IMG/VR virus record: IMGVR_UViG_2778261673_000008
Location: 1 to 43,490 of that record
DNA: 43,490 bases
Strand: one strand, 5' to 3'
DNA from: a virus
Lineage: Duplodnaviria; Heunggongvirae; Uroviricota; Caudoviricetes
Below, piece by piece: positions 6,595 to 34,565 of the stretch. A program made the translations under genes and the position numbers. The notes under the pieces are model-generated. The model did not search any database. It had not been told where the DNA came from and saw only the letters and a program-made list of their open reading frames with translations. Positions within the stretch are counted from its first letter, which is position 1. The number at the start of each line of letters is the position of its first letter.

Positions 6595-6610
6595 GTACCT
6601 CAAAGGTAAT
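6595..6610. promoter_or_regulatory. Operator-like palindrome GTACC-N5-GGTAAT
   Basis: GTACC TCAAA GGTAAT just downstream of the terminator and upstream of the 6690 gene. Confidence 0.4.
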
Positions 6611-6689
6611 AAAAAACCAAATATGGTTGATCTTTTTTTTGTGTCAGCACAAAATAACCGTAATCCCAATACTAATAACAGGGCTTACC

Positions 6690-6890
6690 ATGGAAATCAT
6701 TACACGTATTGATGCCGCAAAGCGCGGACTTAAACGCTACTACACCGGAAAACCATGTAAGCACGGACATGACAGTGAACGCTGGGTTTACAACGGACAC
6801 TGTGTTGAGTGCACCATGGAATCAAACCGTCGTATCAGGGCAGAGATTAAGCAGATCATGATTAATTCCTCCCCACAACACTCAAGCTGA
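6690..6890 (+). CDS. Small zinc-binding protein (C-x-H-x-H...H-C-x2-C), function unknown
   Basis: MEIITRIDAAKRGLKRYYTGKPCKHGHDSERWVYNGHCVEC...; occupies the cII-like position between cro-like and O-like genes. Confidence 0.45.
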   Translation: MEIITRIDAAKRGLKRYYTGKPCKHGHDSERWVYNGHCVECTMESNRRIRAEIKQIMINSSPQHSS

Positions 6891-6905
6891 TAGCGGAGAT
6901 TAATC

Positions 6906-7721
6906 ATGAGCAGACATGCAACAGATTGGGCCTGGGAGACAGATCCAGGTAGCTCATCATTAAAGCTCATACTGCTCTCGATGGCTGACAGAGCCGATGA
7001 ATATAACCTCTGCTACCCCAGCATAGAACGCCTCGTTAAAGACACTTGCCTGAATAAAAAAACCGTGCAGGCCGGGCTTATATCGCTCATGAAAATGGGG
7101 CTTATTTCAGATACCGGAGAGAGAAAGGGAGCGACAAAAAGAGTGCGGGTTTTCTCTCTTAATATAACCAAAAACGGGAACATTAAAGGCAACCGGGAGG
7201 GGGGCAATGAACCCGAAAACGTTAATGTTCCCGAAAACGGGAATATACCCAAAAACGGGATGTTGAATGATCCCAAAAACGGGATGTTGAATGATCCCAA
7301 AAACGGGATCCAGAACCAGTCATATAACCAGTCATATAACCAAGAGAGGGAGAGCAGGACAAAAAACGGGGATTCTGTGCATCATGACCCCGGCGCAAAC
7401 AACGCCGTGATGAATAACTTTGTTCCTCCTGGTGGGCCAGGGCAATTAGGCAAATTTGTCATGCATGAACAATGGCAGCCATCAGATGACTTTCTTCGGA
7501 AAAGCTCATTGCAGGGGATCTACCTGGACAGTCTGCCAACGGCACAGGAACTTGCAGAGTTCAGAATTTACTGGATGGCTGAGGGTAAGGCATACCATCA
7601 GGCACAGTGGGAGCAGAAGCTGGCAAGGCGACTGCAGATTAGCAGACAGAAGCAATCAACATTACCTGATAACAACGTTCCGCACTGGAACAGCCCTGAA
7701 GCATGGGAGGATTTCTTGTGA
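6906..7721 (+). CDS. Replication initiator (lambda O-like role) containing iterons
   Basis: 271 aa; N-terminal winged-helix-like region; internal repeats PENGNIPKNGMLNDPKNGMLNDPKNG are encoded by DNA iterons; immediately upstream of the P-like gene. Confidence 0.65.
   Translation: MSRHATDWAWETDPGSSSLKLILLSMADRADEYNLCYPSIERLVKDTCLNKKTVQAGLISLMKMGLISDTGERKGATKRVRVFSLNITKNGNIKGNREGGNEPENVNVPENGNIPKNGMLNDPKNGMLNDPKNGIQNQSYNQSYNQERESRTKNGDSVHHDPGANNAVMNNFVPPGGPGQLGKFVMHEQWQPSDDFLRKSSLQGIYLDSLPTAQELAEFRIYWMAEGKAYHQAQWEQKLARRLQISRQKQSTLPDNNVPHWNSPEAWEDFL
7168..7308 (+). repeat. Iteron array (putative phage replication origin) inside the O-like gene
   Basis: CCC(A/G)AAAACGGGA repeated at 7168, 7212 (partial), 7230, 7248, 7272, 7296 with 18-24 bp spacing, followed by tandem CAGTCATATAACC x2 (7317-7342). 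Confidence 0.7.
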
Positions 7722-8503
7722 ACAACGTTTTTACCGCGATACAAAACCGTGACGGAGAAGCCCTTTCTCGCATGTCAGGTTATGAGCATCAGTACACCAA
7801 CAATGACAACGTGGTGAACATGTCAGCAGAGAGGCTTGTTGATGCCCTTTTCAAACAGCTGAAACAACTGTTTCCGGCGGCAGTGGTAACCAACCTGAAG
7901 ACGCCAGAGCAGGAAGTTGCTGCAAAACAGCAGTGGATTGCTGCGTTTGCCGAAGGGGGGATCCGAACCCGTGAACAGGTTTCTGCTGGTATGCGCCACG
8001 CCCGAGCCAGTGAATCTCCGTTCTGGCCGTCGCCTGGGCAATTCATCAAGTGGTGTAAAGACAGCAAGATGGTTCTTGGCGTCACCATTGACGATGTGAT
8101 GGCAGAGTTTCACCGGTACAGCAAGGAAAAAAGTTTATATCCTGGTGGTCCCGAAAGATTCCCGTGGCGGCATCCGGTTATGTACTGGGTCGTATGTGAT
8201 ACCCGCCGTGCAATGTATCAGCGCCAGCTTAGCGAGATTGAGGTTGAGAAACACGCGCGCAGGCTGCTCGATGATTGGGCGAAAAAGGTGGCTTCCGGAC
8301 AGCAGATACCCGATCCGGTGATCAGCATACAGGCAAAGCCAGAACCCATGAGTACGCCTCCGGACACAGGGAGAGATGTTTACCATCCACCAGGGCGAAG
8401 TTTCGGGTGCATGCCTAACGCCGCCACCCTTGGGGGAATAACACCGGCGCAGTGGCTGATGGAGGAATACAGGCGAGGAAAGGCAGCAGGATTTATCAAG
8501 TAA
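7718..8503 (+). CDS. Replication protein P-like (helicase loader)
   Basis: QQWIAAFAEGGIRTREQVSAGMRHARASESPFWPSPGQFIKWC is close to lambda P (RRQWVLAFRENGITTMEQVNAGMRVARRQNRPFLPSPGQFVAWC, from memory); GTG start with GGGAGGA RBS overlapping the O-like stop. Confidence 0.8.
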   Translation: MNNVFTAIQNRDGEALSRMSGYEHQYTNNDNVVNMSAERLVDALFKQLKQLFPAAVVTNLKTPEQEVAAKQQWIAAFAEGGIRTREQVSAGMRHARASESPFWPSPGQFIKWCKDSKMVLGVTIDDVMAEFHRYSKEKSLYPGGPERFPWRHPVMYWVVCDTRRAMYQRQLSEIEVEKHARRLLDDWAKKVASGQQIPDPVISIQAKPEPMSTPPDTGRDVYHPPGRSFGCMPNAATLGGITPAQWLMEEYRRGKAAGFIK

Positions 8504-8539
8504 TACCAGCGCGATAGCGCATTTTTTTACGCCTATATG

Positions 8540-8618
8540 ATTACCTTGTAGGTAATAAAATGTTCTAATTTCTATTGATTTCATGTCTTATGTGGTTTTT
8601 AATTACCTAAGGGGTAAA
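8540..8618. promoter_or_regulatory. Two operator palindromes upstream of the 8621 operon
   Basis: ATTACC TTGTA GGTAAT (8540-8556) and ATTACC TAAGG GGTAAA (8602-8618, 3 nt before the ATG), with TATGTGGTT between them. Confidence 0.5.
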
Positions 8619-8620
8619 TC

Positions 8621-10506: not shown

Positions 10507-10780
10507 CCTGCAACTTGCCGTCAAAGGTGAATACTTCGATGCCATGATTCGCAGAGAGAAAACGGAAGAGTATCGCCTGTGTAATGACTATTGGAATAAG
10601 CGCCTCGTTAACCGTAAGTATGACCGCCTGATTATCACAAAGGGATATCCGAAGCGTGACGATTCCAGCCGCAGAATTGACGTTCCGTATGGCGGATATG
10701 AAATCAAGACAATCACACATCCGCACTTCGGCGATAAACCGGTAAAGGTTTACGCGATAAAGGTAAATATTGATGGCTAA
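10499..10780 (+). CDS. ASCH/PUA-like small protein
   Basis: 93 aa; N-terminal GEYFDAMIRREKTEEYR resembles the ASCH fold pattern; AGGAGG RBS, GTG start. Confidence 0.4.
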   Translation: MANLQLAVKGEYFDAMIRREKTEEYRLCNDYWNKRLVNRKYDRLIITKGYPKRDDSSRRIDVPYGGYEIKTITHPHFGDKPVKVYAIKVNIDG

Positions 10781-11111
10781 ATCAGCAGCAGAGCGCAAAG
10801 CCGCTCAGAGAGCCAGACAAGCTGCATCCGGTGTACGTAAGCTGGAGATTGTGCTTGATGCTCAGGAAATTGAAATGCTGGAGCGTAACTGTGCCACGCG
10901 TCGCCCCGGGCGTGCGCCTTACGAATTTGGTGAGTATATAGCGTTACTGATCCGCCAGGATGATGCACGCGTGCGCGGGCGTATAAAATCGATCAGCAGA
11001 AAACGTTGCGGTAAGTGCGGCGAGAGAGTTCCAGTTAATTCATGCCCGTGTAATGGTGACTCGCAATGCTGGGTGACTAAAGGCTGGCATGAAACGAAAT
11101 TAATAGTGTGA
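10770..11111 (+). CDS. Hypothetical protein with Cys-rich C-terminus (possible zinc ribbon)
   Basis: 113 aa; C-terminal CGKCGERVPVNSCPCNGDSQC; immediately upstream of the packaging genes; stop codon lies inside the palindrome GTGACATGTCACG. Confidence 0.4.
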   Translation: MMAKSAAERKAAQRARQAASGVRKLEIVLDAQEIEMLERNCATRRPGRAPYEFGEYIALLIRQDDARVRGRIKSISRKRCGKCGERVPVNSCPCNGDSQCWVTKGWHETKLIV

Positions 11112-11160: not shown

Positions 11161-11186
11161 GCCGCCAACTATGGCGGCTTTATTTT
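11161..11186 (+). terminator. Rho-independent terminator
   Basis: GCCGCC-AACTAT-GGCGGC followed by TTTATTTT. Confidence 0.7.
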
Positions 11187-11196
11187 GCATGGTACT

Positions 11197-11231
11197 ATTA
11201 CCACAACGGTAACTATTACCACGGTGGTTAT
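11197..11231. promoter_or_regulatory. Two operator palindromes immediately upstream of the small terminase gene
   Basis: ATTACC ACAAC GGTAAC (11197-11213) and ATTACC ACGGT GGTTAT (11215-11231, reaching the start codon). Confidence 0.45.
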
Positions 11232-11826: not shown

Positions 11827-13298
11827 CAGATGCAGCGTTATCTCCTGAAGAGCAGTTGATCGAGGATATTGCAGGGTTCACTCACGATCCGCTTGGCTAT
11901 GCCCTCTATGCGTTCCCGTGGGGGGAAGAGGGGACTGAACTGGCACATGCTTCCGGCCCACGTCAGTGGCAGGCCGATGCGTTCCGAGAGATACGTGATC
12001 ACCTGCAGAATCCAGAGACGCGTTATCAGCCGCTTATGCTGGCACGTGCTTCTGGTCACGGTATTGGTAAATCCGCATTCATCTCAATGCTAATCAACTG
12101 GGGCATGTCCACTTGCGAGGATTGTAAGGTCGTGGTGACCGCCAACACCGACAACCAGCTACGAACGAAGACCTGGCCGGAAATTATCAAGTGGTCGAAC
12201 CTTGCTATCACGAAAGACTGGTTTACCTGTACCGCTACCGCGATGTACAGCAATGATCCTGGGCACGACAAGCGGTGGCGAGCTGACGCAATCCCCTGGT
12301 CTGAGCACAACACTGAGGCATTCGCCGGACTACACAACGAGCGCAAACGCATCATCGTGGTATTCGATGAAGCGTCGAACATTGCGGATCTGGTGTGGGA
12401 AGTTGCTGAGGGTGCGCTTACGGACGAAGACACTGAGATTATCTGGGTGGCGTTCGGAAACCCTACACGTAATACCGGGCGTTTTCGCGAATGTTTCCGC
12501 AAATACAAACACCGCTGGAAAACTGCGCAGATTGACAGCCGGACGGTGGAAGGTACTAACAAACAGCAGTTGCAGAAATGGGTTGATGACTACGGGGAAG
12601 ACAGCGACTTCGTTAAAATCCGTGTGCGCGGCATATTCCCTGATGCATCTGAATTGCAGTTTATCCCTACCGGTCTTACTGATGAGGCAATGAAACGGGT
12701 GGTAACCGCTGCGCAGGTGGCACATGCTCCGGTGATAATCGGTGTTGACCCGGCATATTCAGGCGTTGATGACGCGGTGATATACCTGCGGCAGGGGTTG
12801 CATAGTAAGGTGCTATGGACTGGCAACAAGACCACTGACGATCTGATTATGGCGAAGCGTATCGCTGACTTTGAAGACCAGTATCAGGCTGACGCGGTGT
12901 TCATCGACTTCGGTTACGGAACCGGTCTGAAGTCAATCGGTGACGGCTGGGGGCGCACATGGCAACTTGTTCCGTTCGGTGGTGCGTCAACTGACCCTCA
13001 GATGCTCAACAAGCGCGGGGAGATGTTCAACTCATGCAAGACATGGCTGAGGTTGGGCGGGATGCTGGATGACCAGGAAACAGCGGACGATCTGTCGGCG
13101 GCAGAGTACAAAGTTCGCGTGGACGGTAAAATCGTTATCGAACCGAAGGAAGATATCAAAGAACGACTTGGGCGTTCGCCTGGTAAAGGCGATGCGCTAC
13201 TGCTGACGTTTGCTTTCCCGGTGTCAAAGCGCCTGCGACTTCCCGGGCAGCAGAACCAGCAAGGCAAGGCGCTTACCGAGTACGATCCATATGCTTAG
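11823..13298 (+). CDS. Terminase large subunit
   Basis: 491 aa; Walker A-like ASGHGIGKS and Walker B-like IVVFDEA, then nuclease region; GTG start overlapping terS stop. Confidence 0.85.
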   Translation: MTDAALSPEEQLIEDIAGFTHDPLGYALYAFPWGEEGTELAHASGPRQWQADAFREIRDHLQNPETRYQPLMLARASGHGIGKSAFISMLINWGMSTCEDCKVVVTANTDNQLRTKTWPEIIKWSNLAITKDWFTCTATAMYSNDPGHDKRWRADAIPWSEHNTEAFAGLHNERKRIIVVFDEASNIADLVWEVAEGALTDEDTEIIWVAFGNPTRNTGRFRECFRKYKHRWKTAQIDSRTVEGTNKQQLQKWVDDYGEDSDFVKIRVRGIFPDASELQFIPTGLTDEAMKRVVTAAQVAHAPVIIGVDPAYSGVDDAVIYLRQGLHSKVLWTGNKTTDDLIMAKRIADFEDQYQADAVFIDFGYGTGLKSIGDGWGRTWQLVPFGGASTDPQMLNKRGEMFNSCKTWLRLGGMLDDQETADDLSAAEYKVRVDGKIVIEPKEDIKERLGRSPGKGDALLLTFAFPVSKRLRLPGQQNQQGKALTEYDPYA

Positions 13299-14113
13299 TC
13301 TTTATTTTTATCCTCGAAACCTGATAATCCAGATAGAACACCAAAGTTATTAAAAACGTTTGGCTTACCAGATTTTAATCCGGATAAGTTGTGTTGCTCC
13401 AAAAAGTTGCTAATTGTTTGGCCGTTGCCAAGTGCAAGGCTTTTTATTTGAGATTTTTCAGGGTATTTGAGTTTGTATTCGTCGAAATCATTTTGGAGGG
13501 TCTTATATGCCTCATTCATTCTTCCAAGAGTTTCCGATATCTCTTTTAATGAATGATTTAGAGCTGCTAACTGAGCACTGGCGGATCTCAATTCGTCATC
13601 TTTAGCTTTCAACTCGGCAGTCAATTCCCCCATACTATTCTTTGATCGAATAATCTCTTCTTTCATCTCTTGGATGTCTTTTTCCGCGCCAGTCTTAACT
13701 TTGTCGTATGTAACATCTTTTTTAGCCAATAACCTCTGCAGTCTTGTTTCACGCTGGATTTTTCTTGCCTTCAGGTGATTTTCGATTGAGTCATTATTAT
13801 CAAGAGGCTTTGCTTGCCATACGTTAATGATATTGTTTACCCATGGTAATAGGCAGCAGATAGCAATTACAGATAAGCATGGATAAAACATAACAGTTTT
13901 CCATGTGCTGTTATCTGAGATATATGAAATTTTATCTATTATGTTTGATTTGCTAAAAAATAGATAAAGAATTGATTTCCAGTTGAAGGCGCACCAGGAC
14001 ATAACAAAAGCACCAAGCACAGGGTTTTTGGCTCGATTCACGGCAGTATTGGCAGTAGATAAAAACAGCTCTTTGAACGATTCAAACATGCTAATTACCT
14101 TGAAGTTTTTCAT
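13295..14113 (-). CDS. AT-rich moron: membrane protein with long coiled-coil domain
   Basis: Start taken at MKNFKV; two hydrophobic segments (about residues 32-53 and 73-96), then a 130-aa K/E-rich coiled coil; opposite strand to flanking late genes; operator palindrome 4 nt upstream of the ATG. Confidence 0.5.
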   Translation of the reverse strand: MKNFKVISMFESFKELFLSTANTAVNRAKNPVLGAFVMSWCAFNWKSILYLFFSKSNIIDKISYISDNSTWKTVMFYPCLSVIAICCLLPWVNNIINVWQAKPLDNNDSIENHLKARKIQRETRLQRLLAKKDVTYDKVKTGAEKDIQEMKEEIIRSKNSMGELTAELKAKDDELRSASAQLAALNHSLKEISETLGRMNEAYKTLQNDFDEYKLKYPEKSQIKSLALGNGQTISNFLEQHNLSGLKSGKPNVFNNFGVLSGLSGFEDKNKD

Positions 14114-14116: not shown

Positions 14117-14133
14117 TATACCTTTAAGGTAAT
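14117..14133. promoter_or_regulatory. Operator palindrome TATACC-N5-GGTAAT overlapping the moron promoter
   Basis: Minus-strand reading ATTACCTTAAAGGTATAATCATG: palindrome includes a TATAAT hexamer directly before the ATG. Confidence 0.45.
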
Positions 14134-14335: not shown

Positions 14336-14412
14336 TGGCGTGGCATGCAGGATTCGAACCTGCGACCAACCGCTTAGAAGGCGGTTGCTCTGTCCAACTG
14401 AGCTAATGCCAC
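14336..14412 (-). tRNA. tRNA-Arg (anticodon UCU), phage-encoded
   Basis: Hand-folded cloverleaf: acceptor GTGGCAT/ATGCCAC, D-arm GCTC/GAGC, anticodon stem ACCGC/GCGGT with loop CTTCTAA, T-arm GCAGG-TTCGAAT-CCTGC, encoded CCA. Confidence 0.85.
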
Positions 14413-14733: not shown

Positions 14734-14750
14734 ATTACCTGAAAGGTAAT
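14734..14750. promoter_or_regulatory. Operator palindrome ATTACC TGAAA GGTAAT upstream of the portal operon
   Basis: Perfect palindrome; followed about 40 bp later by CATATGTGGTT and GGTAATAA, the same composite element as at 34,549-34,619. Confidence 0.5.
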
Positions 14751-14839
14751 AATTTGTGCGTTAAATGTCAACTATCTACGATAAATAAATCATATGTGGT
14801 TAAATTGGTAATAATTTAATTGCGTACGGAGTCATTGAT

Positions 14840-15046: not shown

Positions 15047-15060
15047 CCGGAGTCATTGAA

Positions 15061-16740
15061 ATGGCGGAAACAACTAAAGAGCGATTGAACAAACAGTTCG
15101 CACAACTTGAAAGCGAGCGTCAGTCGTTCGAGCCGCACTGGCGCGAGTTGAGTGATTACATCAACCCGCGTGGTTCCCGCTTTCTGACTTCTGAGGTCAA
15201 CCGTAACGATCGGCGCAATACACGCATTATTGATTCGACCGGGACTATGGCGGCGCGCACTCTCGCCAGCGGCATGATGTCAGGCATCACAAGCCCCGCG
15301 CGTCCGTGGTTTCGCCTGGCTACGCCAGATCCTGAAATGATGGATTATGGCCCTGTTAAGTTGTGGCTTGAGGCGGTGCAGAACCGCATGAACGATATGT
15401 TCAATAAGTCGAATCTCTATCAGTCGCTGCCGCAGTTATACGGAAGCCTCGGCACATACAGCACTGGTGCAATGGCAGTGCTGGAGGATGACGAGGACAT
15501 CATTCGCACAATGCCATTCCCGATAGGCAGTTACTACCTGGCTAACTCACCTCGTGGCAGTGTGGACACCTGTTTTCGCAAGTTCTCTATGACTGTTCGT
15601 CAGCTTGTTCAGGAGTTCGGGCTAAATAACGTCAGCGAATCCGTAAAAAGCATGTGGGAAAGCGGCACCTACGAGAAGTGGATTGAAGTGATGCATTCGG
15701 TTTACCCGAACATTGACCGCGATACATCGAAGCTGGATAGCAAGAACAAGCCATTCAAATCGGTTTATTACGAGGTTGGTGGCGATAACGACAAGTTGTT
15801 GCGTGAGTCCGGATTCGATGAGTTTCCAATTATGGCTCCGCGCTGGGAAGTTAACGGCGAAGATGTTTATGGATCATCATGCCCGGGTATGCTGGCGCTT
15901 GGACCTGTTAAGGCATTGCAGCTTCTCCAGAAGCGCAAGTCGCAGTTGATTGATAAAGCCACCAATCCGCCGATGGTTGCTCCGACTTCCCTCAAGAATC
16001 AGCGCGCCTCCCTTCTTCCTGGCGACATCACGTATATCGATCAGATTACTGGTCAGGATGGCTTCAGGCCTGCTTATCTGGTTAACCCCAGTACAGCAGA
16101 TTTGGTGGCAGACATTCAGGACACTCGTCAAATCATTAACAGCGCCTACTTTGTCGATCTGTTCATGATGTTGCAGAACATCAATACCCGCTCGATGCCT
16201 GTTGAAGCGGTGATCGAAATGAAAGAAGAAAAACTTCTGATGTTGGGGCCGGTTCTGGAGCGTCTGAACGACGAATGTCTTAATCCTCTCATTGACCGCG
16301 CTTTCTCGATGATGGTGCGTAAAAACATGCTGCCGCCACCGCCTGACGCGATGGAAGGCATGCCCCTGAAGGTCGAATACATTTCCGTCATGGCTCAGGC
16401 GCAGAAGTCTATCGGCCTGTCCAGTCTGGCGTCCACGGTTAACTTCATTGGTCAACTTGCGCAAGCGAAACCAGAAGCTCTCGACAAACTCAACGTTGAT
16501 CAGGCGATCGATGCATTCGCTGATATGTCCGGAGTGTCTCCAACCGTCATTGTTCCGCAGGAACAGGTTGAGCATGCTCGCCAGCAACGGGCACAGCAGC
16601 AACAGCAGCAACAAATGATGGCGATGGGGATGGCGGCGGCACAGGGTGCCAAGACGCTAAGCGAAGCTAAAACTTCGGATCCGAGTGTTTTGTCAGCTAT
16701 GGCGAATGCAGTTAGTGGTCAGGGTGGGCAATCACAATGA
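15061..16740 (+). CDS. Portal (head-to-tail connector) protein, podovirus type
   Basis: 559 aa, T7 gp8-like size; position after the terminase genes; C-terminal Q-rich tail. Confidence 0.75.
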   Translation: MAETTKERLNKQFAQLESERQSFEPHWRELSDYINPRGSRFLTSEVNRNDRRNTRIIDSTGTMAARTLASGMMSGITSPARPWFRLATPDPEMMDYGPVKLWLEAVQNRMNDMFNKSNLYQSLPQLYGSLGTYSTGAMAVLEDDEDIIRTMPFPIGSYYLANSPRGSVDTCFRKFSMTVRQLVQEFGLNNVSESVKSMWESGTYEKWIEVMHSVYPNIDRDTSKLDSKNKPFKSVYYEVGGDNDKLLRESGFDEFPIMAPRWEVNGEDVYGSSCPGMLALGPVKALQLLQKRKSQLIDKATNPPMVAPTSLKNQRASLLPGDITYIDQITGQDGFRPAYLVNPSTADLVADIQDTRQIINSAYFVDLFMMLQNINTRSMPVEAVIEMKEEKLLMLGPVLERLNDECLNPLIDRAFSMMVRKNMLPPPPDAMEGMPLKVEYISVMAQAQKSIGLSSLASTVNFIGQLAQAKPEALDKLNVDQAIDAFADMSGVSPTVIVPQEQVEHARQQRAQQQQQQQMMAMGMAAAQGAKTLSEAKTSDPSVLSAMANAVSGQGGQSQ

Positions 16741-17033
16741 CAGATTACGAAGACGATCAACTGAAAGAAGAAAACGCCCGTAAGCAACGTGACATGGCGC
16801 AGCGTGAAATTGATGACATTCGCTTTGTCATGAGCAGTGAACAGGGGCGTCGCGTTGTCTGGTCGGTGCTGGAGAAAGGCCGTGTGTTTTCCGCTATCTC
16901 ACCGATGGACGCTATGGCAATGGCATTTAATGAGGGGCAACGCAATCTGGCGCTGGAACTGTTTCAGCGCGTTATGGCGCATTGCCCTGAACAGTATTTG
17001 AAGATGGCCAAAGAGGCCAGTGAACAGGAGTGA
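16737..17033 (+). CDS. Hypothetical protein (98 aa)
   Basis: ORF translationally coupled to the portal gene. Confidence 0.4.
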   Translation: MTDYEDDQLKEENARKQRDMAQREIDDIRFVMSSEQGRRVVWSVLEKGRVFSAISPMDAMAMAFNEGQRNLALELFQRVMAHCPEQYLKMAKEASEQE

Positions 17034-17035
17034 TC

Positions 17036-17731: not shown

Positions 17732-17745
17732 GAGAGGAAATGACA

Positions 17746-18732: not shown

Positions 18733-18783
18733 CGCCTGTTATTAACCTGTGGGTCGTAACAGACCCACTAATGGAGAAAGAAG

Positions 18784-19221: not shown

Positions 19222-19231
19222 GGTGATATCG

Positions 19232-23481: not shown

Positions 23482-24026
23482 TGTGCGATCCGGTTATTGC
23501 TGGTGGCGCAATGCTCGCCATGAGTGGCATTCAGGCATACACCCAGTACCAACAGGGAAAGTATGCCTCGAAGGTTGCAGAAGCGAACGCAGATATAGCC
23601 ACAGCTCAGGCAAATGATGCAATAAACAGAGGTAACGCTGAAGCTGAGCAACGGCGCAGAGAGACCCGACAGCGGCTTGGTACACAGGCGGCGACAATGG
23701 GGGCGACCGGCGCTGATTTATCTACAGGTAACGCGCTGGATATATTTGGTGACACTGCTCAGTTTGGCGCTCTTGATTCGCTAACGACGGTGAATAACGC
23801 GCAACGCGAGGCTTACGGTTATCAGGTTCAGGCTGCCAACTATAAAGCAGAAGCCAGTTCAGCCCGTAAACAGGGGAATGTGGGAGCAGCAACAACATTG
23901 CTCACTGCGCCTCTGAAGGCATACGGTGCGTACCAGATGCTTGGAGGGACATGGAGTCCGTTTACTCAAAGCACCCCTGCGCCAATCGGAGCAGCAGCAG
24001 GAACCAGATTACCCGGAGGATTATAA
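23481..24026 (+). CDS. Internal virion protein (gp14-like)
   Basis: 181 aa, Ala/Gln-rich, hydrophobic N-terminus; position before the large core proteins. Confidence 0.5.
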   Translation: MCDPVIAGGAMLAMSGIQAYTQYQQGKYASKVAEANADIATAQANDAINRGNAEAEQRRRETRQRLGTQAATMGATGADLSTGNALDIFGDTAQFGALDSLTTVNNAQREAYGYQVQAANYKAEASSARKQGNVGAATTLLTAPLKAYGAYQMLGGTWSPFTQSTPAPIGAAAGTRLPGGL

Positions 24027-26539
24027 TGCCAGTCGTACCAACAGTATCCGGACGTCAGGTTGAGAGCCGTGGAGTTCAGTCAGCAGGCTTGCAGACGTTT
24101 TCTCAGCCAGGTATTGGTGATGCTTTTGTTCGGGCAGGGGCAGAGGCAATTGATGTTTTGGGGCAGGCAAAACAGCGTGCCAATATTGCCTTGGCTCAGG
24201 AGGCATCTCTTAACCTCAGTCAGATAAGCAGTGATTTGCTGAATAATCCTGAAACAGGATTGCTTAACCTGAAAGGGAAAAATGCTATTGGAAAAGGCCA
24301 TGAGTATACGCAGCAGTTTGATGCTCAGGTCGAACAACTGGCTATGTCGCTGCCGGATGAACAGGCTCGTAATGCTTTCATGCAGCAGGCACAGCAGCAG
24401 CGCATTCAGTTCACTACGCAGGCCGGGCGGCACGAGATAGGGCAAATTAATGCCTACGAAGAAGGTCAGTTTCAGGCGACGCTGCTGAACAATGGTAAAA
24501 ATGCCGCAGCATTGTATGGCGACAATGCCGCATACGTATTGGCTAATAAGCAAACTTTCCAGCAAATTGAGGAGTACGGTGCTGCACATGGCTGGAGCGA
24601 CGAGCAAATACAGGCCAAGAAAATCGAGTTTAAAGAGAAGGTTGCTGATGCAGCATTGTCCCAGTGGTCGGCAAACAATGCGACCGCATTCATCCAAAGT
24701 AATGGCGAGTTAAGTGATACTGCTGCTGGAGCTCGCCGTGCTGTAACAGATAGTGGCTCTTCCGAGCGTGTCCGTGGCATACGCAACAATAACCCCGGAA
24801 ATCTCGAATACAGCAAAACTAATCCGTGGGTAGGCCAGACCGGTGATGATGGTAGATTTGCTAAATTCGAAACACCTGAACACGGGATTCGTGCATTAGG
24901 GCGGAACCTGATGTCGTATCAGCGGCAGGGTATTGATACCGTCAGCGAGATAATTAATCGCTGGGCACCGCCTACTGATAAAAATGACACTATGTCGTAT
25001 ATCAAAGCAGTGTGCGAACAACTTGGCGTTTCTGCTGATGAGCCTCTCGATGCATCAAATCCTGATACCCTGAAGGCGCTTTGTGCAGCCATTATCCATC
25101 ATGAGAACGGTAGCCAGCCATACAGTGATCAGCAGTTAACTGCTGGTGTCAGTGCAGCACTTGGTTTATCAACAATTCCAACCAACACCAAACGCTATAC
25201 CGGTAATGCAGCATTCGATGCGGCATCTCCTGAGGCTCAGGCAAGTTTTATGCGGCAGGCGGATCAACTGCGTCGGCAGCAGCAGGCTGAATATAAAACG
25301 ATGATTGACAGCCAGGTTCGCGATGCGACGGCTGCGTATATGCGTGGCGTTGAATTTCCTAACCCACCAGGTGAGGCTGATTTTATTGCAGCTTATGGCG
25401 TCAGAGAAGGAAACCTGCGATATACCGAGTTCAGAAATACGCAGATCGCTGGACAGTATATAGGCTCTTTCCGCAACATGCCGACAAGCAGCATTACCGC
25501 ATATGTTGAGCAATTACGCCCGGATACTGGTGAGACAGGAGAGGGTTATGCGTCTCGCGCAGCTCTTTATGACAACGTTGTTTCGGCTGCAAATCAGGTG
25601 ATAAAGCAGCGGCAGTCGGATCCTGTGCAGTTCTCTCTTGCCTCCGGACAGGCAAAGCCTATCGACATGAGCAATAAGGATAACTTTGGTCAGAGCGTTG
25701 CCTTGCGTGCCGCTCAGGTCAGTGACCTTGCTAAGTCATATGGCACTCCACTGACGTTCTTTTCCAAAGACGAGGCCAATCAGATCGGTGTTTTCTTTCG
25801 TGATGCTCCAGTTTCCCAACAGGCAGCATATCTCGATACCATCAGGCAGAGCACTGGTGGTGGGCAGGTGTATATGTCAGCACTACAGCAGATCAGTGCC
25901 AACGCTCCATCTGCTGCCGTTGCCGGGATACTGATGGACAAGCCTGGTGGTATTTTGGCAGAAAAAAACTGGTTTAATCCGGATGTTTCCGTGTCTCCTG
26001 AAACCGCTGCGCAGACAATTCTTGCTGGCGCGGCGGCTCGTAAAGGTACTGATGATGCGAAAGGTATTCCGATGCCTAAAGATGCTGATCTTCGCCTTGA
26101 GTTTTCTGACATGGTGAAGGATGCATTTGCTGGTGATGCTCAGGGGGCATCAATGGCATACGAGATCGCAAAGGACTATTACGCTGGTGTGATGGCGAAA
26201 AAAGGCGTGGTATCAGGCGAAATTGACACTGATATCTGGAAACAGGCTGTTAACGTAGCTACAGGTGGCGTGCATGACTATAACGGAATGGGGAATGTCC
26301 TTTTGCCGTGGGGAATGTCTGTAGAGCAATTCGATAAGCAGGTTAATCAGGCTTGGAATGAACAAGTTGTCGGCACCGGGATAAAAACACCGCCTGGTCA
26401 GTATGGTTTGCAAAGTTACGGCGATAGTCAGTACCTGGTGAAACTTGGTACTGGTTATCTGCTGAAAGATGATGGTTCTCCTGTTGTTCTTGATCTGACA
26501 CAGAAGCGTCAGAGATTCTCCGGAGATATTCCGCAATGA
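24026..26539 (+). CDS. Internal virion / ejection protein (837 aa)
   Basis: Start taken at MPVVPT after GGAGGA; conserved-looking block GIRNNNPGNLEYSKTNPWVGQTGDDGRFAKFETPEHG may be an enzymatic domain. Confidence 0.5.
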   Translation: MPVVPTVSGRQVESRGVQSAGLQTFSQPGIGDAFVRAGAEAIDVLGQAKQRANIALAQEASLNLSQISSDLLNNPETGLLNLKGKNAIGKGHEYTQQFDAQVEQLAMSLPDEQARNAFMQQAQQQRIQFTTQAGRHEIGQINAYEEGQFQATLLNNGKNAAALYGDNAAYVLANKQTFQQIEEYGAAHGWSDEQIQAKKIEFKEKVADAALSQWSANNATAFIQSNGELSDTAAGARRAVTDSGSSERVRGIRNNNPGNLEYSKTNPWVGQTGDDGRFAKFETPEHGIRALGRNLMSYQRQGIDTVSEIINRWAPPTDKNDTMSYIKAVCEQLGVSADEPLDASNPDTLKALCAAIIHHENGSQPYSDQQLTAGVSAALGLSTIPTNTKRYTGNAAFDAASPEAQASFMRQADQLRRQQQAEYKTMIDSQVRDATAAYMRGVEFPNPPGEADFIAAYGVREGNLRYTEFRNTQIAGQYIGSFRNMPTSSITAYVEQLRPDTGETGEGYASRAALYDNVVSAANQVIKQRQSDPVQFSLASGQAKPIDMSNKDNFGQSVALRAAQVSDLAKSYGTPLTFFSKDEANQIGVFFRDAPVSQQAAYLDTIRQSTGGGQVYMSALQQISANAPSAAVAGILMDKPGGILAEKNWFNPDVSVSPETAAQTILAGAAARKGTDDAKGIPMPKDADLRLEFSDMVKDAFAGDAQGASMAYEIAKDYYAGVMAKKGVVSGEIDTDIWKQAVNVATGGVHDYNGMGNVLLPWGMSVEQFDKQVNQAWNEQVVGTGIKTPPGQYGLQSYGDSQYLVKLGTGYLLKDDGSPVVLDLTQKRQRFSGDIPQ

Positions 26540-28338
26540 GTTACTTTGGCCTTAATCCAGTAAACCAGAATCAGCAACTTGACGAAGCAGCATCAAATCC
26601 AGCGGGCTTTAACAGCGATGTTGGTTTTTTCGACAATGCTGTAGGAGCGGCATTGTCTGGTTTGTACTCCGGGCTGGTGGCAAAGCCAGATCAGTTGCTA
26701 TGGGCAGGGATGGATAAAATCGTATCCCCGATTGCTCAGTTTATTAACGAAAACACCTCGCTCAATGATACTTCAGTTTCATACATTGCCGAGCAGAGAA
26801 AACTAGCAGAGCAGCAGGTTAAGCGGCTGACGCCTGATGCCGCGACAACCGGAACCGCCGGGCAGGTTCTTTATGGGTTGTTCGATATGGGCGGGCAGGC
26901 TGTTGTCGGTACAACGCTCGGTGGTCCTGTCGGAGGTGCAGCGGCGGTAACTTCGCTACAGGGTTTTTCTGAGTTTGAACGGCTGACAGCACAGGGTGTT
27001 GATTTCAGGACGGCGCAGGAAGCGGGATTAGTGCAGGGCATTACTGCTGGTGCCGGAACACTGATCCCTATGAGCCTCGGGTTACGTGCTGGTGGTGCGC
27101 TGGCGGAAGGTGTGGCGGCTCAGCTTGCGCGGACGGGTGAGAGTTCAGTGCGACGCGCCGCAGCAACAGCAGTACGTGCAACGCCAGATATTGCCTATGC
27201 CGCAGGTACAAATATTGCGTTCGGTATGGCACAGCGTGGGCTTACTGCAAAAACGCTTCGTGATGGTGGCTATAGCGAAATGGCTAACCAGTATGATGTG
27301 TTGGATCGACAGGCAATTGCTATTGATGCTGTTCTTGGGGTGGCGTTTGGTGGTGTCGGCAGATTTATTAACTCTCGCGGCGAGTCTACAAGCGCACCAA
27401 ATTTTTCACCAGTTGATATCGATGCTGCACTGGCGGCGAATGCCGCTCATCATGCTGAAATTGATATTGCTCCCGGCGTGCCGATCAACGTGCTTTCGCG
27501 TAATTCGCACATTCAGGCTCTGCGAAAAGCCATGTCTGATGTTAGCCAGGGGAGACCTGTAGACGTTGCCAGCATTGTTGAGTCTGCATCTTTCAGTGAA
27601 ATTCCTGGGCGCAAGAGTCTGCTGTCTCAGGCAGTTAATGAGGCTCTGTCATCTGTAGATGATGGAGTAACGGCGCGCGCTATAGAAAATCGGTTGCTTG
27701 AAGAACGGGCCGCGCAGCTTTTGCCGCGTGGCGATAGACAGGTTTACCAGTCTGAAATCGCTAATAACCAACGAATTATTGAAAATCTCACTGAACAGCG
27801 CGCACAAATTCTTGCAGAAGAGCCAACCGGTAGCGGTAAGGCTTTATCTCGTGCTCGATCAGATAAACAGGCCAGACTTCGCGATATTGACCAACGAATC
27901 CGGCAGGCACAAGAACGCCTGGAATTTTCTCGTAACGCGTTGGCACCGCATGAGCCTGGCGGTCAGTTTTTTGAAGCTCGAGCAGAACTGGCACGGCGAC
28001 TGCAGGTAGAAAGTGAACTTAATGCTCAGGCTGTTTCATTCTATAAAACAGCAGAGGTCAGGACGCCAGACGAAGTAGCTCCTTTTGAGCCTGATAAAAT
28101 ATTGCAACAGGCAGAACAAAAAATGATGGCGGATCAGGCAGGAGATATTGATCTGCGCATAGCTGAAGACTCGCTGCTTGAATCACCTGACATGATAATC
28201 ACCGTGCTGGATGATGATGGTAATCCACAATCGCGCAGCGCGCGTGAAGTACTGGATGAAGCGAACAGGGAAAGTGAGCAGGCAATACAGGACTCCAGCC
28301 TGTTTGATGTCGCTGTGGCGTGTTTCTTGAGAGGTTAA
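26536..28338 (+). CDS. Internal virion / ejection protein (600 aa)
   Basis: Gly/Ala-rich N-terminal half, charged coiled-coil C-terminal half. Confidence 0.5.
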   Translation: MSYFGLNPVNQNQQLDEAASNPAGFNSDVGFFDNAVGAALSGLYSGLVAKPDQLLWAGMDKIVSPIAQFINENTSLNDTSVSYIAEQRKLAEQQVKRLTPDAATTGTAGQVLYGLFDMGGQAVVGTTLGGPVGGAAAVTSLQGFSEFERLTAQGVDFRTAQEAGLVQGITAGAGTLIPMSLGLRAGGALAEGVAAQLARTGESSVRRAAATAVRATPDIAYAAGTNIAFGMAQRGLTAKTLRDGGYSEMANQYDVLDRQAIAIDAVLGVAFGGVGRFINSRGESTSAPNFSPVDIDAALAANAAHHAEIDIAPGVPINVLSRNSHIQALRKAMSDVSQGRPVDVASIVESASFSEIPGRKSLLSQAVNEALSSVDDGVTARAIENRLLEERAAQLLPRGDRQVYQSEIANNQRIIENLTEQRAQILAEEPTGSGKALSRARSDKQARLRDIDQRIRQAQERLEFSRNALAPHEPGGQFFEARAELARRLQVESELNAQAVSFYKTAEVRTPDEVAPFEPDKILQQAEQKMMADQAGDIDLRIAEDSLLESPDMIITVLDDDGNPQSRSAREVLDEANRESEQAIQDSSLFDVAVACFLRG

Positions 28339-28343
28339 ATTAA

Positions 28344-31573: not shown

Positions 31574-31599
31574 ACAAAAAAAGCCCGCAGCGCGGGCTT
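31574..31599 (-). terminator. Rho-independent terminator of the 31598-32137 gene
   Basis: AAGCCCGC-AGC-GCGGGCTT hairpin with 7-nt T-run on the minus strand, overlapping the stop codon. Confidence 0.75.
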
Positions 31600-32137
31600 A
31601 CCAAAACTTGTACCACGGTGATTTATCCTTCAATGGACAATCCTTCCATCGTGTGGCCAACCATTCATATTCTTTAAAATATGTGTTTATGTTTTCTTTT
31701 TCTCTAATGGCTTGTATAAGAGGTAGCGCAATCTGATAGTTATTTACAACGGAGCTGTAAAATACTTCCTTAATCATGGTCTCATCATAAGTTTTCCGCT
31801 TCACGCTCACAGCCATGCGTTCGTAGAAACCTAGACAGTAAATTATTTCTCTCTTCTCTGTCTTTTCTTCATCCGTAAGATCAGCCTGCCCATTGCTTGG
31901 ATACATATAAGAGCGGAATGATTTGTTCGATTCGTGAATGCGGCGCATAGTAGATAGGCCTTTCTTATAATCTACATCAAACCTGCTTTCACCAAGGAAT
32001 ACTGAAGTGTGTACTTTTCTCGCTGTATTTACATTATAAATAATAGTAGCGATAGCTATGAACAAGCCAAGCGAAACCGCGACTGCACTTACTATTTGAG
32101 CCACGGCCATGGCAAATTGCATTTCTTCACTTAACAC
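31598..32137 (-). CDS. AT-rich membrane-anchored protein of unknown function
   Basis: Single N-terminal TM helix then a 150-aa domain rich in Y/K/E; very low GC relative to neighbours; own terminator. Start GTG 32137 or ATG 32122. Confidence 0.5.
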   Translation of the reverse strand: MLSEEMQFAMAVAQIVSAVAVSLGLFIAIATIIYNVNTARKVHTSVFLGESRFDVDYKKGLSTMRRIHESNKSFRSYMYPSNGQADLTDEEKTEKREIIYCLGFYERMAVSVKRKTYDETMIKEVFYSSVVNNYQIALPLIQAIREKENINTYFKEYEWLATRWKDCPLKDKSPWYKFW

Positions 32138-32264
32138 AAACTGTCTCCAGACATGAAAACGGGGCCTAATGGCCCCGTCATTAAACTATCCGAATGTTAA
32201 ACGCCTTCGTACTCGTCAAATTTTCTCATGTGGGCTCCTCCTGTATCGGTGCCTAATCGCTATG

Positions 32265-32281
32265 GATCACCCGTGAGGTAA
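32265..32281. promoter_or_regulatory. Operator-like palindrome ATCACC-N5-GGTAAT
   Basis: ATCACC CGTGA GGTAAT between the Bro gene 3' end and the 32137 gene start. Confidence 0.35.
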
Positions 32282-32346
32282 TAGTAAGCTATTCACCTGC
32301 AATCTGTACAGAATTATTTAAAGGCACATCCCTGTGCCGCCGTCCG

Positions 32347-33057
32347 TCAGAAGAACCCTGCTTTGTCGTTGATATACTCCGCGTGGGTCTGGATATCACG
32401 CAGGCATTTGCTCACACCGACAATGTAGCAGAACATGGTGGTCAGCTCCGCCGCCGCGCCCGATACATCATGCCCGTCGTCCTGCAACTGATTCAGCAGA
32501 TTCATCAGCAATGAGTTCTCCGTCAGGCCGAGAACACCAGACGGCGAATGAATCAGACTGCGGTAGCCGGGCTTCAGTGGGGCACTGTAGGTTTTGTTCT
32601 CTATCTTCATTGCCTGCATCACTGCTGACGCCGTGGCGTTGGCTACCTGGTCGGCAACCATCTTTATGCGTTCTTCCTGCGGGAACGAGTTTTTAATGTA
32701 GCTTCCTGTTCGACGGATCTGAGGAAGTACCTCACCTGTAACCCATTTACGAAAGCGGTAGGGGATAGTGCCTAGTGTCACTGCGTCGCGGCAGCGGAGG
32801 ATCAGTGTGTAGAGGCCTGACTCGGAGATGATGTTGATCTCTTTTACTCGGCTGTCAAAAATTGCACGATGTTCATGCCCTATGTTGAACATAGACCTTT
32901 CATCATCATCCAGTTTTTCAAGTGCTTGGGTGACGTTTTGGATACGCAGCGCACTACAAACGTCTTGGGCTACAAACCATGGTTGGCCATCGATAATGAT
33001 GGAACGGATAGGGTTAACAGATTCAAATTTGAAGATGGCAGTTTGAGCATTAGCCAT
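32347..33057 (-). CDS. Bro-N domain antirepressor-like protein
   Basis: Start taken at MANAQTAIFKFE (GGAG RBS); N-terminal IFKFESVNPIRSIIIDGQPWFVAQDVCSAL is a Bro-N signature; C-terminal domain is paralogous to ORF 34206-34463. Confidence 0.7.
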   Translation of the reverse strand: MANAQTAIFKFESVNPIRSIIIDGQPWFVAQDVCSALRIQNVTQALEKLDDDERSMFNIGHEHRAIFDSRVKEINIISESGLYTLILRCRDAVTLGTIPYRFRKWVTGEVLPQIRRTGSYIKNSFPQEERIKMVADQVANATASAVMQAMKIENKTYSAPLKPGYRSLIHSPSGVLGLTENSLLMNLLNQLQDDGHDVSGAAAELTTMFCYIVGVSKCLRDIQTHAEYINDKAGFF

Positions 33058-33325
33058 GGTGGTTATCTCCACTTAGTGATTTTAATCACCACCGCAACGC
33101 CAATTACTGGTGGTGAACTGGACAAGGTTGGCGTACCGGCCTAAGTGGTACCGGTGTCCTTTCGGACCCCTGCCCAGCCCACCATAATTCGGATATAGCT
33201 GTGCTTAACGCATAAAAAAACCACGTCTGGCGTGGTATGCGCCACTTAGTAACCCGGGACGCCAATCCCGGCACTGGATTTTGCCAGTGCCCGATTACTA
33301 TGGCACAAGAGGAGTGCGATGTAAA

Positions 33326-33435
33326 TTTACCGAAAAGGTAATGATAAGCGCGAATAAATATCAAAATCAACCGTATTTGGTTGATGGAGTTTAATGCTTG
33401 ATCACCTGAAAGCAAGATATTACCTTTAAGGTAAT
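33326..33435. promoter_or_regulatory. Two operator palindromes in the divergent region between Bro and the 33455 gene
   Basis: TTTACC GAAAA GGTAAT (33326-33342) and ATTACC TTTAA GGTAAT (33419-33435, 20 nt before the ATG). Confidence 0.5.
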
Positions 33436-33454
33436 GTTATTGTGAGGAAAAGCA

Positions 33455-34183
33455 ATGGAAGTTTTCTGGATAGTTGTTGGTGTGGTTGCGGTGATTATTT
33501 ACGTTATCAACCAGAACAAGACTAAGATCTCTGATCGTACGGTCGTAAATCATAACAAAACGATAAAGACCGAAGATGGGGAGATAACGATTAATCGTAC
33601 ACAGGTGATAGAACACACCTCTACTCAGTTTCAAAAAACTGGAGGTAATGCGCCTAATATTTCCGCACCTCCTGCTTATGATAGTGCGGTAATCCAGACA
33701 TATTATAAACAGCAGGAGTTAGCAAAAGAGAGGCAACTGATTCAGCCAAAGCCATTTACAGCAGAGCTTCCACCTGGAGTGTCAACGCGTCCGGCATATC
33801 ATGGAAGATTCCCTGGTGATGACACATCGTCTCAGTCATCTAAAAAAGCACCTCAGGCAGTATCAGAGCCAGCAAGAATACCTTCTGTATCGCCGCCAAA
33901 AGAAGAATCAGCTAACAGAGTTTCAAGTGGTAGCAAGCAGTGCTTGCGATGCAGAATAAACCTTCCATATGAAAAATTCAGGAAATCGTCAAAAAATCCA
34001 GATGGATTGACTAAGTGGTGTGCAAGGTGTCTCGATGGCCCAAAGAATACACGCCATATGAAGTGGTGCCCAATTTGTAATGTCCGCAGAAAACGAACCA
34101 GCTTTTACCCTAATAATCAAAATGCGGATGGTTTAATGGCATGGTGCAAAACGTGCTGGGATGAGCACAAAGCGAAACGATAG
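33455..34183 (+). CDS. Membrane-anchored protein with C-terminal tandem zinc-ribbon-like motifs
   Basis: N-terminal TM helix (VFWIVVGVVAVIIYVI), Pro/Ser-rich linker, two repeats of C-x2-C...DGL..WC-x2-C (CLRCRIN...DGLTKWCARC and CPICNV...DGLMAWCKTC). Confidence 0.5.
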   Translation: MEVFWIVVGVVAVIIYVINQNKTKISDRTVVNHNKTIKTEDGEITINRTQVIEHTSTQFQKTGGNAPNISAPPAYDSAVIQTYYKQQELAKERQLIQPKPFTAELPPGVSTRPAYHGRFPGDDTSSQSSKKAPQAVSEPARIPSVSPPKEESANRVSSGSKQCLRCRINLPYEKFRKSSKNPDGLTKWCARCLDGPKNTRHMKWCPICNVRRKRTSFYPNNQNADGLMAWCKTCWDEHKAKR

Positions 34184-34208
34184 GCCGCTCTTGCGGCCTT
34201 TAAATTTA
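34182..34208 (+). terminator. Terminator hairpin between convergent genes
   Basis: AGGCCGC-TCTT-GCGGCCT followed by TTTAAATTT. Confidence 0.55.
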
Positions 34209-34463
34209 CCGGGTTTGTTTTCGTAATTGTTCGGCACAATAGTCGAGATGTGTTTGCAGATCCCGCATAGACATCTGTGAGCTGGTGACGTAGTTAATCA
34301 GTGCAGTCAGTTCGGCAAGTGGGCCATCGACATTAAATCCATCCTTATCGAGATCCCGGAGTAATTTCATCAAGTGCGATCCCTCCACCAGTGACCTGAC
34401 GCCTCCCGGCGTGTGAATCCTTTCGGTAAATCCCTCTTCCAGTGGATAGTGATACTGCTGCAT
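34206..34463 (-). CDS. Small protein paralogous to the Bro C-terminal domain; candidate SOS-controlled antirepressor
   Basis: Start taken at MQQYHYPLEEGF (GGAG RBS); aligns with the Bro C-terminus (HTPGGVRSLVEGSHLMKLLRDLDKDGFNVDGPLAELT versus HSPSGVLGLTENSLLMNLLNQLQDDGHDVSGAAAELT); LexA box 22 bp upstream. Confidence 0.5.
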   Translation of the reverse strand: MQQYHYPLEEGFTERIHTPGGVRSLVEGSHLMKLLRDLDKDGFNVDGPLAELTALINYVTSSQMSMRDLQTHLDYCAEQLRKQTR

Positions 34464-34484
34464 CTTATCTTCTCCATGCAATAA

Positions 34485-34500
34485 CTGTATATTTATACAG
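34485..34500. promoter_or_regulatory. LexA (SOS) box
   Basis: AACTGTATATTTATACAGTAT matches CTGT-N8-ACAG and the TACTGTATATATATACAGTA consensus; lies in the promoter region of the 34206-34463 gene. Confidence 0.7.
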
Positions 34501-34548
34501 TATCAAATAATTTATTTGCTATCCAGCACGTTTTGAAAATTACCTGAA

Positions 34549-34565
34549 AGGTAATATCTGTTCGA
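34549..34565. promoter_or_regulatory. Operator palindrome ATTACC TGAAA GGTAAT upstream of the tailspike gene
   Basis: Identical to the site at 14734-14750; followed by CATATGTGGTT (34594-34604) and GGTAATAAAAT (34610-34620). Confidence 0.5.

Follow-up and report, generated by a model that had tools for sequence, protein, structure and literature searches.

The window analysed here is the whole 43,490-nucleotide (nt) stretch of the IMG/VR virus record IMGVR_UViG_2778261673_000008. A prophage of the genus Uetakevirus (phiV10/epsilon15-like) occupies bases 1-39383, and the remainder is Escherichia coli chromosome adjoining guaA. The window starts at the start codon of the integrase gene (int), and the left end of the prophage falls just outside it. 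At the right end, the attR core attgagtgggaatgatt (39367-39383) equals the attP core of ZX5, phiV10, and epsilon15 (quoted in PMC9782041). The structural region is 98-99% identical to that of Escherichia phages HEMP4, ZX5, phiv142-3, TL-2011b, and phiV10, and E. coli EC1722-1 carries a near-identical prophage between guaA and yfgI. The prophage encodes a repressor, Rep, and an antirepressor, Ant, and a 17-base-pair (bp) palindrome, ATTACC-N5-GGTAAT (symmetric, 6-N5-6), stands at the start of nearly every one of its transcription units. To judge from its sequence and setting, this palindrome is almost certainly the operator of Rep (5570-6154).

A sequence-only reading of this DNA had placed the palindrome before nearly every transcription unit, and counts over the window confirm this. 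With up to two mismatches allowed, ATTACCNNNNNGGTAAT has 16 matches, compared with 1.23 +/- 0.95 expected from 100 dinucleotide shuffles, none of which reached 16. Five copies are perfect and seven have one mismatch. Intergenic DNA accounts for 7.7% of the prophage on a gene map derived from the Prokaryotic Genome Annotation Pipeline (PGAP) annotation of a near-identical prophage, and it holds all five perfect copies, 12 of 12 at one mismatch or fewer, and 14 of 16 at two or fewer. The two coding matches, at 24008 and 35800, are about the number that chance predicts.

A weight matrix was trained on the left and right operators (OL and OR) alone, taken from six genomes: this prophage, phiV10, epsilon15, SPC32H, Enterobacter phage Tyrion, and Klebsiella phage BUCT711. 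Outside the immunity region it finds nine matches of at least 14 bits against 0.155 expected (200 shuffles, maximum 2), and 11 matches of at least 12 bits against 0.37 in shuffles; the sequence-only reading had proposed such a scan as a check, and its claim passes. The top three scores in the whole window (33419, 14734, and 34539) all lie outside the immunity region. A motif-blind census of 5-N(3-9)-5 dyads ranks TTACC-N5-GGTAA first with 10 exact copies, followed by an unrelated dyad with two. The dinucleotide shuffles, the OL/OR-only matrix, and the dyad census together rule out an artefact of chance or AT-richness. Altogether, 14-18 sites are spread over about 13 of 16 units. A text search of the literature for the motif gave no relevant match.

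Rep (194 residues; 5570..6154, minus strand) is an XRE/HTH_3-type protein with an N-terminal helix-turn-helix (HTH) and a C-terminal tetramerisation/Ant-binding domain. It matches the Rep protein of SPC32H over its full length (PDB 5D50 chain A, residues 1-190, E 4e-42) and is 100% identical to phiV10 p40 and ZX5 ORF21. When ZX5 ORF21 is overexpressed, the lytic cycle is blocked, free phage disappears, and the mRNA of holin and endolysin falls by more than 99.9% (PMC9782041). SPC32H Rep is reported to bind palindromic DNA as a tetramer, with DNA-binding pairs drawn from different dimers, and is taken apart by the tetrameric antirepressor Ant (PMC9638917). The ant gene of the prophage (34206-34463, minus strand) matches PDB 5d50_E with an E-value of 5.6e-47, and a perfect LexA box, CTGTATATTTATACAG (CTGT-N8-ACAG), is read from the sequence at 34485-34500.

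Lambda-like OL and OR arrays of the palindrome flank rep on both sides, and they overlap PL and PR, which score best among the promoter matches there. The rep terminator (5549-5530) precedes the distal OL operator ATTACCCGTTAGGTAAT (5497..5513; no mismatches, 21.3 bits). The proximal OL operator GTTACCGTTGAGGTAAT (5435..5451; one mismatch, 19.5 bits) lies 62 bp away, centre to centre, and overlaps the -10/+1 of PL, a minus-strand consensus match (TTGACA-17-AATTAT, 5478 to 5450). This pair keeps its 62-bp spacing in phiV10, epsilon15, SPC32H, and Tyrion and has 63 bp in BUCT711. OR (6209..6273) consists of O1 ATTACCCAACAGGTAAA (6209-6225), the degenerate O2 TGCACCTCGTGGGTAAC (6226-6242), and O3 GTTACCTTATAGGTGAA (6257-6273), which lies over the -35 of PR (TTGTTA-17-TATTAT, 6255-6283); a triple with 17 + 30-31 bp spacing is also found in epsilon15 and SPC32H. 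Between the terminator of the cro-like gene (6561-6580) and the 6690 gene is a further operator, CGTACCTCAAAGGTAAT (6594..6610; two mismatches, 13.8 bits), whose ACC-N5-GGTAAT core is invariant in five genomes (alignment A5).

The DUF1064 ('nin') unit has a distal operator at 8540-8556, just after a T-run hairpin terminator, and a proximal operator at 8602-8618, 62 bp apart. The proximal copy covers the ribosome-binding site (RBS) and ends 2 nt before the ATG at 8621; both half-sites and the intervening TTGAnn -35 are invariant in six genomes (alignment A3). The small terminase gene (terS) is preceded by tandem operators at 11197-11213 and 11215-11231, 18 bp apart, between a terminator (11161-11178) and the ATG at 11233. 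The second copy ends 1 nt before the start codon, and the 18-bp pair is kept in phiV10, epsilon15, SPC32H, and Tyrion (alignment A4).

The control region of the portal operon (14734..14812) contains a perfect distal operator (14734-14750). The proximal site, GTGGTTAAATTGGTAAT (14796-14812), lies 62 bp downstream of it, is degenerate, and overlies the -10-like GGTAATAAT. The whole block is invariant and gap-free in six genomes (alignment A1). On the minus strand, a candidate leftward promoter at 14743-14771 (TTGACA-17-TACCTT) has its -10 within the 14734 palindrome and points toward tRNA-Arg(tct) (14336-14412). Its GTCAA core is invariant in six genomes, and the 'portal' operator may serve divergent promoters.

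The tailspike control region (34539..34605) has the same plan, with a perfect distal operator and a degenerate proximal site, GTGGTTTTTCAGGTAAT (34589-34605), 50 bp apart, beside a -10 TAAAAT; spacing and half-sites are kept in six genomes (alignment A2). The distal copy is at 34539-34555, 10 nt from the 34549-34565 first assigned to it. Directly after it, at 34557-34572, is a LexA-box-like sequence, CTGTTCGAATTCACAG (CTGT-N8-ACAG), which is probably fortuitous because it is not kept in phiV10 or epsilon15.

The AT-rich moron gene (13295-14089, minus strand; GC 36.7%) has its start at 14089 backed by a full-length phrog_4780 match. Its operator (14117..14133; 17.5 bits) overlaps the -10 TATAAT of a minus-strand promoter (ATGACC-17-TATAAT, 14143 to 14115), which is preceded by a terminator at 14172-14157. 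Operator ATCACCCGTGAGGTAAT (one mismatch, 16.8 bits) stands before a leftward unit comprising a 10-codon open reading frame (ORF) and the DUF4760 gene (31598-32137); it occupies 32266-32282 rather than 32265-32281. Just before the DUF4760 gene, minus-strand DNA at 32140-32229 contains this ORF (MRKFDEYEGV) with a strong Shine-Dalgarno sequence, then a GC-rich hairpin and a T-run. The layout resembles a leader or attenuator downstream of the 32266 operator.

Two sites near the accessory gene 33455-34183 had both been assigned to that gene, and only one of them belongs there. Operator ATTACCTTTAAGGTAAT (33419..33435; no mismatches, 25.4 bits) is the best in the window and lies 19 nt before the gene. 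The other, TTTACCGAAAAGGTAAT (33326..33342; 21.0 bits), overlaps the leftward promoter (TTGATT-18-TATCAT, 33370 to 33341, minus strand, a consensus match) of a different unit. In that unit, Rfam models identify on the minus strand the Hfq-binding small RNA isrK (33214-33290, 67.7 bits) and a C4 antisense RNA (33106-33189, 63.6 bits), and a BRO-N gene (32347-33057) follows directly downstream. By its gene content, this isrK/C4/BRO unit appears to be an antirepressor module like P1 immI; with the LexA-controlled Ant, the prophage would have two antirepressor-type modules. Homology to phiV10, ZX5, and most relatives stops at 33331-33349, which is at the 33326 palindrome, and the 33455-34183 gene, which has a perfect operator to itself, forms an insertion that TL-2011b shares. 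These breaks hint that operators may coincide with mosaic junctions. Annotation of defence systems in the operator-bearing cargo genes gave PADLOC matches too weak to interpret.

The lysis unit is the most divergent. Its plus-strand promoter region (37374..37410) carries only an ATTACC half-site (37374-37379), the CATAAATGGTT motif, and a -10 TATGAT. In phiV10 (24691), epsilon15 (24703), SPC32H (24781), and Tyrion (26407), a full palindrome lies about 50 bp upstream of the same lysis promoter motif; the full distal operator is missing here. It goes together with a different tailspike and an additional gene (37070-37342). The int site ATTACCTTAAAGGTATA lies outside the window, immediately to its left (L006 507-523) and 58 nt upstream of int, with a -10-like TATACT in its right arm. 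It is present in all six genomes and suggests that int may also be under Rep control.

Most of the other placements in the sequence-only reading were right as given (14117-14133, 14734-14750, 8540/8602, 11197/11215, 6594, and 33326/33419). It had also described copies 3-20 nt before start codons, and such proximity is found at 8602 (2 nt), 11215 (1 nt), and 33419 (19 nt); the overlaps of GGTAATAAT and GGTATAAT with -10-like hexamers are real.

The palindrome is enriched to the same degree in phiV10, epsilon15, SPC32H, Tyrion (16 matches against 1.0 expected), and BUCT711 (14 against 0.76), whose repressors are 42-78% identical to Rep. The palindrome, its positions, and the pair spacings (62, 50, and 17-18 bp) are kept in the six genomes, with hosts in Escherichia, Salmonella, Enterobacter, and Klebsiella, even though repressor identity is as low as 42-45%. 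Homologous positions include the OL pair, the OR triple, the site after the cro-like gene terminator, the DUF1064/RuvC pair, the terS pair, gp3/portal, the tailspike, the lysis genes, and int. The distance from the distal palindrome to the proximal GGTAAT half-site is gap-free in all six genomes at the portal (62 bp), tailspike (50 bp), and nin (62 bp) units. In these three alignments the half-sites are invariant, and the N5 spacer and flanks vary.

PseuP_224 is an unrelated Pseudomonas lambdoid phage whose cI protein shares the N-terminal HTH (39% identical to that of Rep) and the TTACC half-site. It has four copies of TTACC-N4-GGTAA, all flanking cI and nowhere else, which ties the half-site to a Rep-type HTH. 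Throughout the family, residues N36, R40, and W41 of the recognition helix show little or no variation, and the unchanged half-site fits this; with helix and half-site both invariant, there is no variation from which covariation could be read, and PseuP_224 adds only the change of spacing (N4 vs N5). The ACC...GGT core hardly varies among 64 distinct sites from the six genomes. Of 62 deviating arm pairs, 53 are one-sided, with pairing broken, which argues for a protein site and not a hairpin. By inspection, there is no consistent strand bias in the deviations from symmetry.

There is also a second motif, CATATGTGGTT, with three exact TATGTGGTT copies (8589, 14793, and 34586) and one variant copy (37387). 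On the coding strand it spans 8589-8597, 14793-14801, 34586-34594, and 37387-37397, which places it 47-59 bp downstream from the distal Rep operator and shortly before the -10-like hexamers of the nin, portal, tailspike, and lysis units, and it is kept in relatives. By inspection, TATGTGGTT fits neither a DnaA box nor an IHF site and is not a degenerate Rep half-site, and when one mismatch is tolerated it is not enriched. The motif may belong to the -35/spacer region or be bound by a phage activator.

Just before terS, bases 10770-11111 encode a 113-residue protein that is well conserved, the aligned homologues being at least 77% identical. Its N-terminus is beta-alpha-alpha and ribbon-helix-helix (RHH)-like, its C-terminus carries a C-x2-C...C-x-C (Cys4) cluster, and PHROG classes it as a 'transcriptional regulator' (phrog_536). 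It has no Pfam or PDB match, and its AlphaFold model, with a predicted local distance difference test (pLDDT) score of 56.8, is too poor for a fold search. This protein is a candidate late regulator and a possible activator at the CATATGTGGTT sites. If late promoters need an activator, Rep control would be partly redundant, which would explain the tolerated loss of the full lysis operator.

Another phage regulator could also bind the palindromes, either alone or in addition to Rep, with the distal copies, at about -62 to -82, activating middle and late promoters. The prophage encodes both a Cro-type protein (6309-6539; phrog_35) and the RHH-like/Cys4 protein, the distal sites lie where class I activators bind, and the portal and tailspike promoters have weak -35 hexamers. 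However, the sites have the same sequence as OL and OR around rep, the proximal copies over the -10, +1, or RBS have a repressive geometry, the PseuP_224 outgroup links the half-site to a Rep-type HTH, and CATATGTGGTT is a better candidate for an activator site. Binding by another regulator in this role is therefore unlikely.

There is a similarly slim chance that OL and OR are the sole functional operators. The remaining copies would then be neutral decoys, scars of recombination where modules meet, or sites of low occupancy and no regulatory effect. The break in homology to phiV10 and ZX5 at the 33326 palindrome would suit recombination scars, and the lysis-unit operator has been lost here without obvious harm. 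Against this, the three top-scoring sites in the window lie outside the immunity region, and placement over the -10, +1, or RBS is systematic. Moreover, the half-sites and spacings at the portal, tailspike, nin, and terS units are invariant across four host genera, whereas the neighbouring bases vary.

The geometry of the sites bears on how a bound repressor would act. Site clusters lie directly after rho-independent terminators (those at 5549-5530, 6561-6580, 11161-11178, and 14172-14157 and the T-run hairpin before 8540) and extend over the -10, +1, or RBS of the unit that follows, as judged from predicted promoters. At PL and the nin promoter alike, operators are centred at about -62 and +1, and the -10 of the moron promoter lies inside its operator. 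Spacings of 62, 93, and 31 bp amount to nearly whole numbers of helical turns. In the structural operon (16-kb; 15047-28343), none of the seven internal gaps carries a site. The position after terminators, the overlap with -10, +1, or RBS, and the site-free structural operon fit promoter occlusion by classical operators rather than a stoperator-type block to elongation, and Rep binding would accordingly be expected to prevent initiation.

Cluster A mycobacteriophages have stoperators of 13 bp that lack symmetry and are recognised by a monomeric repressor with two DNA-binding domains. These sites depend on orientation, occupy short gaps within operons, and halt elongation (PMC9283540). The sequence-only reading had drawn an analogy to stoperators, which does not hold, as the sites here are symmetric and found only at the 5' ends of units, after terminators. 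There is a likeness to cluster A phages such as L5, Bxb1, and TipsytheTRex in the many genome-wide copies of one repressor site and in silencing beyond the early promoters (PMC9283540). Unlike stoperators, however, the sites here lie at unit starts only and belong to an unrelated, tetrameric-type repressor, and their symmetry and location rule out membership in the stoperator class.

It is also very unlikely that Rep acts in stoperator fashion by halting RNA polymerase that reads through from upstream units. Most clusters do lie directly downstream of terminators, and the terS pair, between a terminator and a start codon and without a recognisable promoter, has the sole geometry compatible with a roadblock; there, such a function is plausible. 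However, symmetric sites make orientation dependence impossible, internal gaps of the structural operon lack sites, most sites overlap plausible promoters, and Rep has no relationship to the repressors of cluster A, which are monomeric and have two domains (PMC9283540). Finally, the idea that the palindromes act as RNA hairpins in 5' untranslated regions, as RBS sequestration or processing sites, has next to no likelihood: several copies include the Shine-Dalgarno sequence (8602, 11215, and 14117 on the reverse strand) and the 17-mers can fold at -3.6 to -4.5 kcal/mol, but these hairpins are weak and in native context do not outperform shuffled sequence (z about -1), the distal copies precede the predicted start sites, and compensatory deviations number only 2 of 62, so that weak folding and missing compensatory variation rule out an RNA or DNA hairpin function.

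The reading that remains is that the palindromes are Rep operators through which Rep silences nearly all units and from which Ant releases it, and this model as a whole is probable. In it, the N-terminal HTH of Rep would read the ATTACC half-site, and Rep would be an SPC32H-type tetramer with two DNA-binding units. In the lysogen, Rep would sit on OL, OR, and the operators at essentially every other promoter. The units under its control would be int, PL, PR, replication, DUF1064, terminase, portal/structural, tailspike, three accessory units, and the P1 immI-like isrK/C4/BRO unit. The earlier proposal that one repressor may silence late and accessory genes stands as regards a shared operator, to which the enrichment, the intergenic-only placement, the conservation in six genomes, and the PseuP_224 half-site all point; from the same features, we infer that Rep occupies the sites outside the immunity region, the late and accessory ones included.

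The operators would work singly or in pairs. A pair combines a strong distal site with a proximal one over the -10, +1, or RBS, and the two are separated by 50 or 62 bp (about 5-6 turns) or by 17-18 bp. Paired sites suit the two DNA-binding units of Rep, which suggests that one tetramer bridges both sites of a pair, and the promoter would be occluded or looped out. Upon DNA damage, LexA would release the ant promoter, and Ant would strip Rep from all operators at once, so that the whole genome would be derepressed in one step.

Several observations weigh against this model. Promoter assignments are consensus matches only, and the promoter scan overall is not above shuffle expectation; the terS pair has a terminator on one side and the ATG on the other, with nothing in between that can be recognised as a sigma-70 promoter. 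The proximal sites of the portal and tailspike units are half-sites only, and the 50-bp spacing corresponds to 4.8 turns, which is only roughly in phase. The presence of CATATGTGGTT at four promoters suggests an additional regulator, in which case Rep may not be the sole control of late genes. Lastly, the lysis unit has no full operator, yet it must stay silent in the lysogen.

Epsilon15, the type species, is the closest system described. In its record (AY150271.2 / NC_004775.2), the depositors mark seven perfect palindromes as 'protein_bind: repressor, lysogeny', of which three are at OL and the others precede terS (first copy), gp3/portal, the tailspike, and the RuvC unit; the phiV10-group records have no repressor-site annotation. 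A dispersed network had thus already been proposed, through this annotation, for an enterobacterial podovirus. The prophage belongs to the same genus as epsilon15 and has its 17-bp palindrome at the corresponding places (OL, the nin-type unit, terS, gp3/portal, and the tailspike), and it shares with SPC32H (PDB 5D50/5D4Z) a homologous Rep and a LexA-controlled Ant. With a Rep homologue, an identical palindrome, homologous positions, and a LexA-controlled Ant, it belongs to the Uetakevirus Rep operator set. Unlike the epsilon15 record, where only the seven perfect copies are marked and OR is unmarked, the prophage shows 14-18 sites when imperfect ones are included. Operators are also present here at units that epsilon15 lacks (the AT-rich moron, DUF4760, the 33455 gene, and isrK/C4/BRO), whereas the lysis genes here have no full site.

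The C1 regulon of phage P1 provides a resemblance in function, not in family: one repressor serves many unlinked promoters in an enterobacterial phage. P1 immI is controlled by C1, and here too an immI-type unit with a C4 antisense RNA and an antirepressor is among the predicted targets. P1 differs in that its operator is asymmetric, C1 is an unrelated protein, and the phage is a plasmid-prophage myovirus; neither ATTGCTCTAATAAATTT nor a C1-family protein is found here. C1 has 22 dispersed operators, which match the asymmetric 17-mer ATTGCTCTAATAAATTT, and is modulated by Lxc and Coi (PMC8546580). Given this classical regulon (PMC8546580) and the seven sites annotated in epsilon15 (AY150271.2), the suggestion in the sequence-only reading that such a network had yet to be described for an enterobacterial podovirus-type prophage does not hold.

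The immunity region itself resembles the lambda-type switch and that of PseuP_224, with multipartite OL and OR flanking the repressor gene and a divergent PR/PRM-type geometry. Unlike in this prophage, where late and accessory units also have operators, lambdoid phages including PseuP_224 have operators in the immunity region only, and their late genes need the Q antiterminator. None of the genes checked in the prophage is annotated as a Q homologue or was noticed to be one.

Added to the epsilon15 annotation here are a fuller list of sites that includes the imperfect ones, the geometry of paired sites, the reassignment of the 33326 operator, and three cargo units with high-scoring operators of their own. 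A more far-reaching proposal is tentative. In it, every promoter of the phage group would be wired to a single tetrameric repressor through phased pairs (a strong distal and a weak proximal site, 50 or 62 bp apart) that act as micro-loops, and one LexA-controlled antirepressor would switch early, late, and cargo genes together. New cargo (the moron, DUF4760, the 33455 gene, and isrK/C4/BRO) would be captured by gaining its own operator, and operators would mark the junctions of module exchange.

The practical gain is modest and consists of an operator map fuller than the epsilon15 annotation, together with the paired-site geometry. The operator, repressor, and antirepressor would form a compact and portable set for engineering reporter phages based on phiV10 and epsilon15. 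If the model is true, operator-bearing cargo genes would be predicted to have lytic-phase functions and not to be lysogenic-conversion genes, and control of the whole genome by a non-cleavable repressor and one antirepressor would be explained. If Rep occupies all sites, the Uetakeviruses would have a flat, single-repressor regulon, quite unlike the cascade of lambda-type phages, where the lack of an antiterminator is all that keeps late genes silent.

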